From assembly GCA_951406725.2 (NCBI GenBank), contig OX597829.1:35650001-35714000 (forward strand): DNA of 64,000 nt, in the 5' to 3' direction. The position numbers and the translations under genes were made by a program. The notes beneath the pieces are model-generated. The model was given only the letters and a program-made list of their open reading frames with translations. It searched no databases and was not told the origin of the DNA. The stretch comes from Octopus vulgaris. Its lineage: Eukaryota. Positions 23,925 to 64,000 of the stretch are shown here, piece by piece. Position 1 is the first letter of the stretch, and every line of letters begins with the position of its first letter.

Positions 23925-24280
23925 TATAAGAAAATAGTAAAGAGTGAAAAAACGACAGAAGGCTTAAATGTTAAAAATATATATATTTGCGTCAAAATGT
24001 CTGGAGAATATTGCAAAAAATTTTTTCCTCCTTAAAATGACATAATTTTATAATTTTTAAAGAAATACGGTTTCGCAGTTAGCTCTTCAAATTTCTTGTG
24101 ACTTCAAGAAATTTGAAGAGCTAACTGCGAAACCGGTATTTCTTTAAAAATTATAAAATTATGTCATTTTAAGGAGGGAAAAAATTTTTCCAATATTCTC
24201 CAGACATTTTGACGCAAATATATATATTTTTTAACATTTAAGCCTTCTGTCGTTTTTTCACTCTTTACTATTTTCTTATA
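23925..24280. repeat. Long palindrome (about 175-bp arms, 6-nt loop) of a PLE pLTR-like sequence
   Basis: Arms are reverse complements with a few differences. Loop tgactt at 24099-24104. Confidence 0.95.
24106..24144 (+). ncRNA. Hammerhead-like motif (U3.G8 variant)
   Basis: AAGAAA-U-UUGAAGA-GC UAACU GC-GAAA-CCGG-UA-UUUCUU; stem III palindrome ACCGGU. Confidence 0.5.
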
Positions 24281-25377
24281 CATATATATATATATATATA
24301 TGGCTGTGTGGTAAGTAGCTTGTTTACCAACCACATGGTTCCGGGTTCAGTCCCACTGCGTGGCATCTTGTGCAAGTGTCTTCTGCTATAGCCCCGGGCC
24401 GACCAATGCCTTGTGAGTGGATTTGGTTGACGGAAACTGAAAGAAGACTGTCGCATATATGTGTATATATATATATGTGTGTGTGTGTGTGTTTGTGTGT
24501 TTGTGTTTGTCCCCCTAGCATTGCTTGACAACCGATGCTGGTGTGTTTACGTCCCCGTCACTTAGCGGTTCGGCAAAAGAGACCGATAGAATAAGTACTG
24601 GGCTTACAAATAATAAGCCCCCGGGGGCCAATTTGCTCGACTAAAAGGCGGTGCTCCAGCATGGCCGCAGTCAAATGACTGAAACAAGTAAAATAGTAAA
24701 AGAGTAAAGAGAGAGAAAGAGAGACGATGAGACAATAAATGTGTTATGTATCTTACGACTGCTTAACAAGTAAAAGTATGAATTTACAGAATTCGGATGA
24801 ATTCATTTGAGACATATACATGGATAATAGCAGATTGTTTTTATTGACATTACTTCAGGAAGAAATAAAAAGAACAACTAAAAATTAAATTGAAACAATA
24901 AGAATTACGCCAAATGTTAGAGTGAATAAAATCAATCGGGTTGAAGAAATTATTCTTGAACATAGTATGCAAAGTAGATGCGTAGATACTAAGATTGATC
25001 CGGGACATAAAATTAAGTTATGATGCATTAGACGCACGTGTCTTCAGTAGGGAAGTGACAATTTGAAATTTCGAGGGTTATACGTACGCACATACATACA
25101 TACATACATACATACATACATACATACATACATACATACATACATACATACATACATACATGCATACGTACGTACGTACGTGCTTAAATAAATTCGTACG
25201 TACATACACGCATACGTATATACATACATACAAAAATACATACACACACATATATATACATATATACATAGAAATATATACACACACCCATTGTTATGTT
25301 TACTTACATATTTTCACAGTGTATACCTAGGTAAACTATCCACCTGCAGTTTCTCAACTTCACTTATCCACTGATTA

Positions 25378-25740
25378 TCTATCTATATATATATATATCT
25401 ATATATATATATATATAAAACTGAGAATATCTGTCTGTCTGTATGTGTGCATACCTAAAACTCAAGAACTACTCAACTGATTTCATTCTAATTTTACACA
25501 TGTCTTACTTAGGTCCCATGCAGTGTCATGGGGATGGGGCAAAAACATTTACAGCTTCTTCCCAAATGCAAGCCCGGGGCAAGCTCTTGCACTATTTCAG
25601 TATTACTTCTCAAAAGTGAAACAATAACATCTCTATTGTAATAGGAGATAATAGTTTCAGTTCTAATAGCTTCACTATGTTCATAATATATACATAGTGA
25701 AACTATTGTTTCACGAATAATATATAATTATTGTCTCATG
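25378..25740 (+). mobile_element. Helitron-like 5' end
   Basis: A|TCTATCTATATA...aaaactgagaatatctgtctgtctgtatg...aactactcaactgatttcattc, the same style as the 5' end of the 2566-2941 element. Confidence 0.55.
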
Positions 25741-26644
25741 CATATATATATATATATATATATATATATATATATATATATATATGTATATATATATATA
25801 ATAGTGTACATTTGAACACAAAAGAAATGGCCTTAACTCGCTAGAAAGAGTAGTTAAACTCTAAACCACTATTAGGGGTAATTTCGAAAGGGAATGAAAG
25901 AAAAAACATTTACCCTGTATTTCCTGTACCATGCATGGTTTCAAGCAATCTTTAGTAAACAATATAATTTACACTAGCGAAGCTATTGTCAGCAGGAAAG
26001 CCTAAATTAACATATAAAAACGAAGCGATATTTATTACACACACACACACACACACACACACACGCACACACACACACACACACGCACACACACACAAAC
26101 ATATATATATATATATATATATATATATATATATATATATATATGTATATATATACATATAATGGAATAAATACTATGAAGTATTGTGTAGAATATATTG
26201 TATAAAGGATCGTGGGTAAGGTGAGAAAAATACGAAGTAAATGCAAGGTAAATCACAAGAAACAAATATATGAATTAACATTAATTCATAGATTTGTTTC
26301 ATGTGATTTACCTTAAATTTACTTCCCATTATTCTGGGCATACCCATGATCCCATATATATATATATATACATACATACATACATACATACATACATACA
26401 TACATACATACATACATACATACATACATACATACACACACACATATTTCAAGGGAAAACGAGTACGTATAGGAGTCACCAACATGCTAGAAAAAGATAC
26501 CAATGACCAAAATCTACCTAAATATATCACCGTGAAGTATAAACATGCGCCGTACTTGTTGAAATAAAAGAACAGATTCATGAAACGGTTCAATTACATA
26601 ACAATGGATTTCAAGATTAAGGGGTAATCCCTTTTTCTATCATC

Positions 26645-26905
26645 ACCCTCTGCATCATTACCCTCCGCAAAACATCCCAAATTTTATTTACTTTGCTTTG
26701 CGGGAAGGACTGTTTCAACGAAGTTGCGTCCCGTCCTTACCTTCGAACGCGGAGTAGACGAAACTGAAGAAGGGGAATATTCCTTGTGTTGTATGTTTTG
26801 TACTCTGTTTCTTTTTTTCGTTGTTTGAAAAAAGTTCGTTTCTGTGTTTTTGCTTTTATGTTTTCGTTTCGCATTGTGTTCCACATTTTTTATGTCCTGT
26901 ATCCA
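26645..26905 (+). mobile_element. Dispersed repeat, PLE pLTR-like; inverted relative at 29240-29470
   Basis: Shares gcgggaagg, ttccttgtgt.gtatgt.ttgtactctgttt and tgtcctgta with the reverse complement of 29240-29470. Confidence 0.65.
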
Positions 26906-61090: not shown

Positions 61091-61133
61091 ATGCCAAACC
61101 GGTTTCAACAATTCTTTTGCTTATCAATGGTAC
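61091..61133 (-). ncRNA. Minimal hammerhead-like ribozyme with U3-A8 core
   Basis: GUACCA-UUGAUAA-GCAA AAGAA UUGU U-GAAA-CCGG-UU-UGGCAU. Confidence 0.6.
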
Positions 61134-62385
61134 AAATATATAAATAAAGGGTTTAGGAGCATTTAAATTTATAGAGTAAAAACTGGGCAAACACGTTTTA
61201 ACCTTCAAATGTTCACAGAAATTTCAATGAGTTTCACAGGGATAGCTGGTAATACAAGAGTAAATGTTTGGTGAAGATCATAACAAATGTACATTATTGA
61301 GAGTTCAGTCATATTGAATTTTTATTTTCAAAAAAGTTGGGGGTGAGGCTGGGAAAGGAGAAAGAGAAAAATATGGAGAAAAAGTAAAAGTTTGTTTTTT
61401 TTACAATTTCTATCGTGATGCGTGTAGTTCTTTTCTCGATTTCAGTCGAAGCGCACGGGTCTCTTCACCTTCTAAGCTTGATAGAGTTCCAAATTTTTTA
61501 GTATATTTTAGTTTTATGGTAAAGAATCAAGTTTTGATTGGTTGCAATTGTGATGAGCTTTTATGTTTTTCTCCTGTATATTTTGGTCAAAATATTTTTG
61601 CTTTGGAAAAGTCCCGCGTTCTGTTTGGACGGTTTCCTGGTGACGTCATGTGTTTGTAGAACATTTTCATTCCTTGGTGATCACGGTTAGGAAACAAATT
61701 CTGATTGGTTGTAGGTTTCGTGCCGTCACTTGTTTTGATCAAAAAATTATTTTCCGTTTTCGAAATAATATTTTTGTTTTAGCAGAGTTAGCGTTCTGCT
61801 TGGTTAACTTCCTGGTAGGGACTCGGCAAGCTTTGTTTGCTTGATGGTCATCTAGCGTTCCGGTTGGTTGGGTCGGTTCGATGCTTATTTATCTTTTTTC
61901 CTGAGAGTCTGGTTCTAACCAGAGAAAACTTTTCTTGATCTGATCTGACATCAGCAACTGGTGTTTGAAAAGATGTATGGTGTTTTTTGCATAGTAGCTT
62001 GGAGTTCGGTGTCAAATTCCTGAGGAAGCGTCCAACTTAAATTTTTCAACTTATATTTGTTGTTTCTGGTCGTTTTTCGTGAATAAAATGGGTTTTCTCT
62101 TCTGGAGTGTTATTATATGATATTTAGTTGTGCTTTGTATTTTTCAATGAACATACTTTCCTTATTTAATCAGAATCGGGTTCAAGTGTTTCCGCTGCAT
62201 TAATAGAGAGAGAAAACTTGGTATTACGGATTTATATTTGTGGGGCATTGATCTAAGTGTTTGCTCACAGAAAATTTTCTGGTCATTGGATCCCATAATC
62301 ATTGAAATTTCTGTGAACATTTGAACATTTGATCGTTTAAACATGTTTTTCTAACTTTAAACTGTCCTAAACCGCTTATTTATTC

Positions 62386-62435
62386 GTACCGTTGATAAGC
62401 CAAAAGTTGGAGAAACCGGCCAACCGGTTTGGTAT
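62386..62435 (+). ncRNA. Hammerhead-like ribozyme with U3-A8 core and full stem III hairpin
   Basis: GUACCG-UUGAUAA-G CCAA AAG UUGG A-GAAA-CCGG CCAA CCGG-UU-UGGUAU. Confidence 0.6.
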
Positions 62436-63479
62436 TTGAATAAATGTACTACAAAATTACAAAATTTAAAAACGACTACAAGTTTTGAGATTCAGGTGCA
62501 TTTTCAAACCCTACAACAAATTCCCTATGTATGTGCGAGTGTGTGGGTGTGTATGTACACACACACACATATCTTGCCCATATGTTGGTTAGTCGGGGCG
62601 TCGGCTAGCCGACCGATTTACCGATCATTTATGGGATATCCGCCAGCGAAAAGTGTCTCGTTGCCCGTCATTTTTGCTCTGCCGGCCATTCCACTGCACA
62701 CCCCACAGTCTTCAGTCTGGTCTCGCACCATGGATCTAACAGCACCACTCTTCACGTTGAACAACGCTACATTTTCTCGCTTGAAACCCATATACCGTAT
62801 GGACTTAATACTCATCGCCTTCCAGTAACATCCTCCACACACCTTTTTAAGAATAGTTTTTTAATCTTAATTTAAAAAAATTTTAATCTTTAAATTTTAA
62901 GTTTTAAGTTTTAATTTCTCTTAATTTTAATTCTTATCGATTTAAATTTTTTATTTAAATTATTCTTAATCTTAATTCATCTTCCATACACTTCTACACA
63001 CTCACATACATAGCTTGTGCACACCCCCACATACGCATACTACATACACAGTTAACGCGCACGCACACACACACATATTTCTATATCTTGGCACGACCAA
63101 AAGTCTCTTCACATACACCAATACACACACACACACACACACACACACACACACACACACACACACACACACACACACACACACACACACACGTGCAGAT
63201 ATACATGCATGCACATATACACACGCACATATACACACAGAGGCACATGCAAACATTATTATACATATATACACACGCATACATCAACACACACACATAC
63301 GTATACACAAAAACACATATATACACTCCCACACTTGTCATCTCACCTCTCACCACCAAATCTAACTGCAACTGCTAACCTGTCCACACCCTTACTCACA
63401 CATCGTTCACATAAACACAAACATCCACGCACACAGATACTAACACACACACTCACACTCACCATTTTTTGCACTTTGC

Positions 63480-64000
63480 TGTCTTAAAAACCACTTCCTC
63501 TATCTCTCTTCCTCTTCCGGTCACTTCAGCCATGTAGCCACAAACTTTATTTTCCTGGACATTCTTTCTTCTCTCCGTACCTTTGCTCTCTCCTTTTTCG
63601 GACGAAGAGCCATGCTCGAAACGTTATATTCTGCCTTTTCCTTTTATACTCTATACTTAGCGTCAACTTAATACATCCCATGTGTACATATACATGAGCG
63701 AGAGGAGTGAAAGAAATTGAGGGAACAAATTTCAGCATCCCACTCTAGCGTCTTCCCATTACAAACATGATTATGTATATATCTGTGTGTTTTCATCTCT
63801 CCATATCTTAAATGTTATGTATGCATTCACATACATGTATACATACATATACATATATACATATATATATATATATACATATACACATATACATACAAAC
63901 ATATATGTGTGTAACTCGTGAATACCACCGGCGATTTTTTTTCCTCTGTCCTCCCGTCTCGGGATCTTTCCTTCTCCCATGTTTCCGACGAAGAGCTCCG
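63480..64000 (+). mobile_element. Two PLE pLTR-like repeats with hammerhead-like motifs (63599-63626; 63985 to window end)
   Basis: cggacgaagagccatgctcgaaacgtt and ccgacgaagagctccg (cut by the window edge). Same family as 37123 and 53988. Confidence 0.55.

Follow-up and report, generated by a model that had tools for sequence, protein, structure and literature searches.

Hammerhead motifs of Penelope-like and retrozyme-like elements in an Octopus vulgaris contig, and a young family fixed for a G3-C8 core pair

Which elements carry the dozen hammerhead-like motifs scattered over one stretch of the Octopus vulgaris genome, and has cleavage, or the fold alone, been kept in them? The stretch (the window; 64,000 nucleotides, contig OX597829.1, positions 35,650,001 to 35,714,000 of the forward strand, with coordinates below counted from its first letter) is part of a 2.8-Gb genome in 227 contigs; its GC content is 35.6%, and simple repeats mask 22% of it. 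The motifs are very probably minimal type-I hammerhead sequences of Penelope-like elements (PLEs) and retrozymes. It also seems likely that they sit in the pseudo-long terminal repeats (pLTRs) of unrelated PLE families and in one retrozyme-like unit, whose source elements dimerise and cut where the core is intact.

All twelve positions listed in an earlier, sequence-only reading proved hammerhead-like, six on each strand. A strict descriptor (NUGANNA, stem II ≥3, GAAA followed by a palindrome, UH, stem I ≥4) detected four sites (27217, 32234, 53261 and 53988), all with a Watson-Crick 3-8 pair, against a mean of 0.025 and a maximum of 1 in 200 block-wise dinucleotide shuffles of the window; a loose descriptor detected nine, six of them Watson-Crick, against a mean of 0.75 and a maximum of 7. 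Equal frequency in shuffled sequence had been named beforehand as grounds for abandoning the motifs, and the observed counts were reached in 0 of 200 shuffles with either descriptor. Chance matches in AT-rich, repeat-rich DNA are thus a negligible explanation: loose descriptors do produce some, and an unlisted hammerhead-like match at 58815-58858 (- strand; CUGACGA, AUAU, 4-bp stem I) is a chance product or an old relic because it is single-copy in the genome, but the shuffles, thousands of exact genomic copies against none for reversed patterns, and the consistent pLTR position all oppose it. Chance origin is ruled out for 11 of the 12 sites; 33497 stays doubtful as a hammerhead.

The cores were as first read at six sites: CUGAAGA at 27217, CUGAUGA at 32234 and CUGACGA at 53988 (C3-G8), UUGAUAA at 61091 and 62386 (U3-A8), and GUGAACA at 53261 (G3-C8). 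The other six differ. Site 24106 reads UUGAAGA, a U3·G8 wobble with an extra U preceding the core; 33497 (CCGAAGA), 55116 (CCGAUGA) and 63985 (CCGACGA) carry U4C, 63599 carries U4G (CGGACGA) and 37123 carries A6U (CUGUCGA). An intact NUGANNA core is present at 6 of 12 sites and a Watson-Crick 3-8 pair at 11. The palindromic stem III, described as nearly universal, was indeed seen at 10 of the 12 sites and in all window families except E. The exceptions are 33497, where stem III is a hairpin and UH is missing beside stem I, and 62386, where an 8-nt duplication has made it a hairpin.

Standard searches did not recover these motifs: no hammerhead family was among the 150 best-scoring of 312 Rfam matches in the window, and six loci gave no hammerhead match at the Rfam gathering score. 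The expectation that searches restricted to CUGANGA would overlook these hammerheads was correct, and because Rfam and CUGANGA descriptors miss all motifs of this kind, hammerhead counts in animals are likely underestimates.

As the earlier reading had it, the motifs belong to several repeat families; the 12 sites fall into about ten genome-wide families (A1-A3 and B-H). Each was aligned from 15-30 loci (labelled L plus a number, e.g. L141, L216, L238), the surveys being drawn from the flanks of retrieved loci and the first 100 listed pattern matches, all from the start of contig C1. Copies are 97-100% identical in family B, 94-99% in F, 92-98% in C and 90-96% in G, the young families, and 78-85% in D and 68-87% in A1, H and E, the old ones. 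Exact patterns matched the genome 16,804 times for A2, 15,486 times for A-group copies with a 3-nt loop and 6,491 times for F, with 0 matches for the reversed-pattern controls; these three disjoint patterns together give at least about 38,800 genome copies. The family D pattern gave 17 matches, and patterns for H gave either 0 or mostly background (807 versus 237 in the control).

At the family level, an intact core (NUGANNA, GAAA and UH with Watson-Crick 3-8) was found in C (CUGAAGA in 25/25 copies), D, F (GUGAACA in 30/30), H (U3-A8 in 20 of 30 loci) and A1. It was absent from A2 (A6U), A3 (U4C), B (U3·G8 plus the extra U), G (U4C) and E (no UH). The unpaired nucleotide at 9/10.1 and the G10.1-C11.1 pair occur together in F and A1-A3; B has the G-C pair without 9a, D has A-U, and C, G and H carry an additional nucleotide preceding G12. 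More hammerhead families, absent from the window, lie in the flanks of the retrieved loci. Two motifs combine U3-A8 with ACCGGU but have different stems, one further motif joins U4C to ACGU, and L216 carries C3-G8 with AAUCGAUU at 4074-4116.

The suggested link to Penelope-like elements and their minimal type-I hammerheads was confirmed, in that seven families (A1 at 63599, A2, B, C, F, G and H) adjoin reverse transcriptase (RT) or GIY-YIG endonuclease (EN) coding sequence. The family C hammerhead (27217..27259, - strand; C3-G8, an extra U on both sides of stem II, stem III ACAAUUGU, A17 at 27221) lies in the 5'-truncated 3' end (untranslated region and pLTR) of a Hydra-type PLE (27115..28777, - strand; 94.8% to L141). 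In L141, two motifs 5.56 kb apart enclose a stop-interrupted RT (YRDD) and GIY-YIG; its translations show DKT, a CxCX5C linker and CxxC/CxH, with the RWK position broken by a stop. Family C inserts at (TA)n targets, and its marks match the Hydra-clade definition as given in PMC8557442. Another family C pLTR 3' end, at window positions 1-140 (+ strand), runs into (TA)n; its motif would precede the window, and no motif was found in L150 for this pLTR. Pfam profiles missed the Hydra-type RT and EN and most PLE pieces.

Family B is represented by a motif at 24106..24144 (+ strand; U3·G8, core preceded by an extra U, stem II of 2 bp, ACCGGU) and a second, inverted one with a 1-nt deletion in the palindrome (24060..24097, - strand), together in a back-to-back foldback at 23929-24276. 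At other loci (L216-L220) the motif follows, by ~135 nt, an open reading frame (ORF) for RT, a CX4CxxC linker and GIY-YIG, by which features family B is assigned to the pLTR of a very young Neptune-type PLE. The A2 motif (37121..37156, + strand; CUGUCGA, ACGU, stems decayed in the window copy) precedes a broken N-terminal Neptune-type ORF at 37730..38705 (+ strand), a 5' pLTR arrangement; compared against the ORF behind the A2 motif in L228, this remnant gave 52-59% identity (E 1e-35 to 4e-9). A 137-bp direct repeat, 99% identical (38103-38239 and 38810-38946), breaks it up.

The family F motif lies in a truncated pLTR inserted in (TA)n/(GA)n, with approximate ends at 53180..53326 (- strand); in full copies the motif stands ~1 kb (1,000 nt) behind an ORF of YVDD-RT, CX3CxxC linker and GIY-YIG, the last matching PF01541 at 25.1 bits, above cut-off. 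Family G (55116..55163, - strand; U4C, ACAGCUGU, stem I broken in the window copy) is tied to Hydra-type coding remnants in L221 and L223. By comparison with L146 and L147, the family H motif at 61091..61133 (- strand; U3-A8, ACCGGU) is assigned to the 3' pLTR of an old Neptune-type PLE, with a GIY-YIG remnant ~1 kb upstream (62122..62322, - strand; 34% identity, E 5e-7). An inverted H copy lies at 62386..62435 (+ strand; U3-A8), where the 8-nt duplication yields a 5-bp stem III hairpin with a tetraloop, so that folding as a monomer is conceivable in principle. The A1 motif at 63595..63629 (+ strand; U4G in the window copy) has a GIY-YIG remnant ~800 nt upstream (62581..62803, + strand; 47-48% identity, E 6e-8). 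The remaining A-group motifs are an A1-type copy at 53988..54022 (+ strand; canonical CUGACGA, ACGU, C17) and an A3 copy clipped by the window end (63981..64000, + strand; U4C), whose palindrome locus L149 completes as ACGU. The hammerhead-like family E sequence (33493..33575, - strand; long stem II, non-palindromic hairpin stem III, no UH at the III/I junction, U4C in this copy) falls outside the hammerhead motif, since UH beside stem I and the palindrome are missing.

The way the copies lie in the genome also fits PLEs. An inverted copy within 1.5 kb was found at 5/30 loci for F, 10/25 for B, 5/25 for C, 4/25 for G and 4/30 for H, and family F has two 3' ends ~60 nt apart, at 122-132 nt in 8 of 30 loci and at 177-197 nt in 20, which resemble the PLE tail (PMC11167929). 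The corresponding inverted-copy count for D and 3'-end distance for B were discarded, as the patterns themselves had produced them. Together with the (TA)n targets, the back-to-back inverted copies and the alternative 3' ends fit PLE insertion structure as described in PMC8557442 and PMC11167929.

The 3-8 pair was claimed to covary, and it does so between families, not between copies within a family. Family F is the most informative case. Its window copy (53261..53310, - strand) has G3-C8 at 53303/53298, G9a, a 5-bp stem II, AAUAUU, U17 at 53268 and a 7-bp stem I. G3-C8 was present in 93 of the first 100 of the 6,491 matches, C3-G8 in 0, and older F subfamilies keep G3-C8 while loop II differs. 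No core variant at ≥10% was seen in contigs from four runs labelled as four organisms, which give sequence only and neither ends nor strand; loop II varies there. A sister family S in the same genome (~50% protein identity to F, homologous pLTR) has C3-G8 in 17 of 20 rows, and metagenome relatives found by protein have C3-G8 (L233, L235) or U3-A8 (L229, L231). In a tree containing F relatives only, F and S group at 97/96 support and stand next to L233/L235 at 81/87. Since F groups with S and then with this C3-G8 pair, its G3-C8 is most likely a derived double transversion.

All six F-related lineages are Watson-Crick at 3-8 (exact permutation p 0.017, the lineages not being independent). In pairwise mutagenesis, the G:C swap at 3-8, alone among double mutants of the CUGA region, restored activity strongly, all other changes there leaving it low (PMC9901934), and the same swap partly rescues an Anolis PLE hammerhead (PMC11167929). 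That the rescuing swap is fixed in F, with its relatives paired, supports selection on active-site geometry in the F lineage; family F preserves the active-site pair, and partial activity is predicted for it. Its core swap is identical to that of engineered C3G/G8C mutants, which show partial rescue in vitro (PMC9901934, PMC11167929, PMC8495972, PMC3884650); unlike these laboratory-made molecules, it is fixed in a natural, recently active family, and would be the natural counterpart of the classic rescue mutant. A natural G3-C8 was not found in the literature searched, where only engineered mutants appeared, although that search did not cover Lünse et al. 2017, where it may be listed. A young PLE family fixed for G3-C8 and nested among C3-G8 relatives is thus new in the literature searched.

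Several observations weigh against cleavage by source elements as a general explanation. Family A2 has U6 in 96 of the first 100 of 16,332 matches, A3 has C4 in 71 of the first 100 of 8,540, G has C4 in 24 of 25 copies (CCGAUGA in 20) and B has UUGAAGA in 25 of 25. In A1 the majority core is canonical and stem I is mispaired. Family S (L238-L255; copies 84-100% identical) has A9C in 16 of 20 rows, a non-palindromic stem III and a weak stem I. Five of nine metagenome loci gave no readable motif, with L231 and L233 parsed by eye; a 16-lineage set, 15 of them Watson-Crick (p 0.0006), includes families picked for the trait, and its lineages are not independent. No PLE coding sequence was tied to D, E, A3 or the 53988 copy. 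Within-family covariation in D was not significant (score 0.123 versus 0.113, a level matched in 34 of 500 shuffles), which is what inactive copies of a single source would be expected to show. The AAUAUU palindrome alone pairs very weakly, at -0.2 kcal/mol. Elsewhere, PLE insertion in vitro proceeds without hammerhead cleavage and no RNA-seq ends fall at the cut site, as reported in PMC11167929, and one of nine Xenopus retrozyme dimers cleaved.

In B, G, A3 and A2 the core deviations characterise the family and did not arise by decay of the window copy, although A3 rows with U4 may partly be CpG decay. Little or no cutting is predicted for families fixed for A6U, U4C, U3·G8+U or A9C, or with a defective stem I, yet they spread. 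The proposal that compensatory change reveals selection on cleavage therefore holds best for the G3-C8 lineage, and less well for several very successful families in which uncompensated core changes are fixed or stem I is missing. A9C recurs in the metagenome relative L231.

Within A2, hand counts from the first 100 matches of patterns that held the stem and loop II fixed gave A24/C21/G11/U44 at position 7 and A72/U26/G2/C0 at position 17, while the other freed positions (3, 4, 5, 8, 9 and 12-15) deviated in ≤6 of 100. The fourth pair of stem I was C-G in 21 of 32 A2 rows, and G-C in 8 and A-U in 4 of 13 rows from A3 and others. Because the A2 core is mostly fixed except at 7 and 17 and stem I covaries, the fold looks constrained and the chemistry relaxed; the fold also appears to be selected more consistently than the chemistry, because families with U4C, A9C or a defective stem I have also been successful. 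Natural U4C and A6C hammerheads have low activity (PMC3088659). For U4C, the literature searched offered nothing beyond engineered mutants and a viroid that carries it naturally; A6U did not turn up there, the search again leaving out Lünse et al. 2017, which may list it. A still larger family, A2, with U6, more than 16,000 matches and a freely varying position 7 is likewise new in the literature searched. Four of the first 100 A-group rows have G17, usually a disfavoured cleavage-site base, and in three of them the fourth stem I pair is A-U.

These patterns raise the possibility, which we rate clearly below cleavage by source elements, that PLEs retain the hammerhead fold mainly for a non-catalytic role of their RNA within the particle, in protein binding, dimerisation or positioning for internal priming. 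Cleavage would then be incidental, so that single-residue chemistry drifts and pairings are kept. The largest families carry A6U or U4C and yet retain C3-G8, the stems, GAAA and the palindrome; only positions 7 and 17 vary at the subfamily level in A2; stem I covaries; and insertion in vitro runs without cleavage. However, the 3-8 pair and the avoidance of G17 belong to the conformation that cleaves (PMC3088659, PMC9901934), U4C and A6C variants retain low activity elsewhere (PMC3088659), and family S spread after losing the palindrome and stem I, for which reason the fold itself seems dispensable there.

Less probable still is that the motifs are vestiges or passengers inherited from ancestors that cleaved; they would now be neutral, each family having stopped at its own stage of decay. 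The family-level breakage in S, A1, E and B would suit this, as would Naiad PLEs, which thrive without canonical hammerheads and for which the authors raise parasitism (PMC8557442). But a neutral G3-C8 would need two transversions hitting the one rescuing pair, the core has been kept across older F subfamilies with different loops II, and position 7 of A2 has four states with its neighbours fixed.

No monomeric palindrome hairpin was favourable (computed 0.0 to +6.0 kcal/mol; ACGU impossible), and palindrome self-duplexes ranged from -0.2 to -19.5 kcal/mol, stronger than cross-duplexes. The suggestion that different palindromes restrict dimerisation to the same family stands insofar as self-pairing beats pairing across types; the effect is weak, and family-specific pairing is limited because ACCGGU is common to B and H, and ACGU to A1, A2 and A3. 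Minimal PLE hammerheads are reported to be inactive as monomers and weakly active as dimers (PMC4209133), and in the sole purified system PLE hammerhead cleavage is protein-assisted (PMC11167929). In the source elements, hammerheads would likely fold as dimers via the stem III palindrome, and tandem precursor RNA would likely be cut, with help from the element's protein, in families with an intact core. Tandem pLTR-ORF-pLTR transcripts would juxtapose two motifs, allowing unit-length cutting in C, D, F and perhaps H, whereas inverted copies on opposite strands would form long hairpins instead. Cleavage in families C, D and F, whether as dimers or with help from protein, is somewhat favoured. 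Single copies would arise by target-primed insertion with 5' truncation; the dispersed ones would be by-products, likely inert and decaying neutrally. Selection would then act on source elements only, which would make covariation visible between families.

Family D stands apart. Its hammerhead (32232..32283, - strand; C3-G8, A10.1-U11.1, AUCAGCGCUGAU, long extended stem I) lies in an element of more than unit length at 32061..32482 (- strand), a ~337-nt unit with a terminal direct repeat and no coding sequence. A period of 333-352 nt was found at 15 of 25 loci, pairing was seen in 86% of the cells of the extended stem I, the fold z is -2.07, and a PLE-protein match occurred at only 1 of 25 loci, 1.4 kb away and belonging to another family. 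By these features family D is classed as a ~345-nt non-LTR retrozyme-like unit. It shares with known metazoan non-LTR retrozymes (Cervera and de la Peña 2020, PMC7229834; bioRxiv 10.64898/2026.07.22.740005) the ~345-nt non-coding unit, which lies within their 150-450-bp range, partial tandems, low GC and a type-I hammerhead with long stem I; unlike them it occurs mostly as 1.1-1.4 units instead of long arrays and has a 12-nt palindromic stem III. A separate circular-RNA or retrozyme system built on ribozymes, its palindromes coding for dimerisation within each family, could draw on this ORF-less, more-than-unit repeat and its fold, and on the better pairing of palindromes with their own type. 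We consider it improbable, given the seven families tied to PLE coding sequence and the palindromes common to different families. What had been called a large, diverse ribozyme-based retroelement or circular-RNA system consists of ribozyme-bearing retroelements: PLEs with the pLTR hammerhead already known from them, and a single retrozyme-like family.

In kind, then, these hammerheads are known, including U3-A8, U3·G8, the 9a nucleotide and the palindromes; relative to the literature searched, the G3-C8 and U6 families are what is new. The architecture of mostly single truncated copies with many families per genome was published for PLE minimal hammerheads by Cervera and de la Peña in 2014 (PMC4209133). 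The octopus motifs share their type-I topology, palindromic minimal stem III, extra nucleotide after A9, pLTR location and inverted pairs; that paper already lists U3-A8 (S. mansoni families 3 and 4) and U3·G8 (S. kowalevskii 1), and in its H. magnipapillata entry the extra U's are placed as in family C. Its 56-sequence alignment contains no G3-C8, U6 or C4, which its descriptor would exclude. Against up to ~9,000 copies per genome there, the three disjoint patterns here gave more than 38,000 exact matches.

Compared with Hydra-clade PLEs (Craig et al. 2021, PMC8557442), family C shares DKT, CxCX5C, EN CxxC/CxH, (TA)n targets and the pLTR hammerhead, an assignment that rests on protein marks read from translations; its 5.56-kb unit, with a long microsatellite-rich 3' region, contrasts with a length given as 'generally <3 kb'. 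Families B, A2 and F share with Neptune/Nematis PLEs (PMC8557442) a C-terminal GIY-YIG that bears C..C/H..H residues and follows a CX3-4CxxC linker. All of B, H, A2 and F have a C-terminal GIY-YIG and a CX2-5CxxC linker, H as judged from its resemblance to B; the Neptune/Nematis-type label of B, H and A2, provisional for F, rests on these features. H and B proteins are 31-48% alike, whereas F (YVDD; homologs with DKS) and B are ~25% alike over short stretches only. The supplement of PMC8557442, searched for the core 7-mers, gave coding-sequence matches only, among those listed.

Cleavage by PLE hammerheads is slow and protein-assisted, and was dispensable for insertion in vitro (PMC4209133, PMC11167929). 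With young families in a single genome in which canonical, G3-C8, U3·G8, U4C, A6U and broken motifs have become fixed, each family having a protein of its own, cutting versus folding is directly testable. More tentatively, these tens of thousands of copies may amount to a natural mutagenesis of the hammerhead active site, comprising G3-C8 and a CUG-U-N-GA (A6U) core that would still be selected because position 7 and the cleavage-site base vary among subfamilies, G17 is avoided and the stems covary. Such a core might either cleave inside the Penelope ribonucleoprotein, dimerisation or protein relaxing the core rules, or serve through its fold as a non-cutting retrotransposition signal.

Other repeats lie between the motifs. 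A LINE-type element at 43287-46154 (- strand), with endonuclease (PF14529) and reverse transcriptase (PF00078) frames split by one stop, is unrelated to the hammerheads. Two abundant short interspersed repeat families, at 15985-16381, 22400-22970, 24302-24686, 47554-48319, 53396-53845 and 55508-55640 and at 3569-4160, 41364-42726 and 60049-60471, contain no hammerhead by descriptor; we take them to be possible SINEs (short interspersed nuclear elements). Frames at 8339-9911 of L150 and 179-2185 of L223 resemble what are presumably Helitron Rep/helicase pieces.

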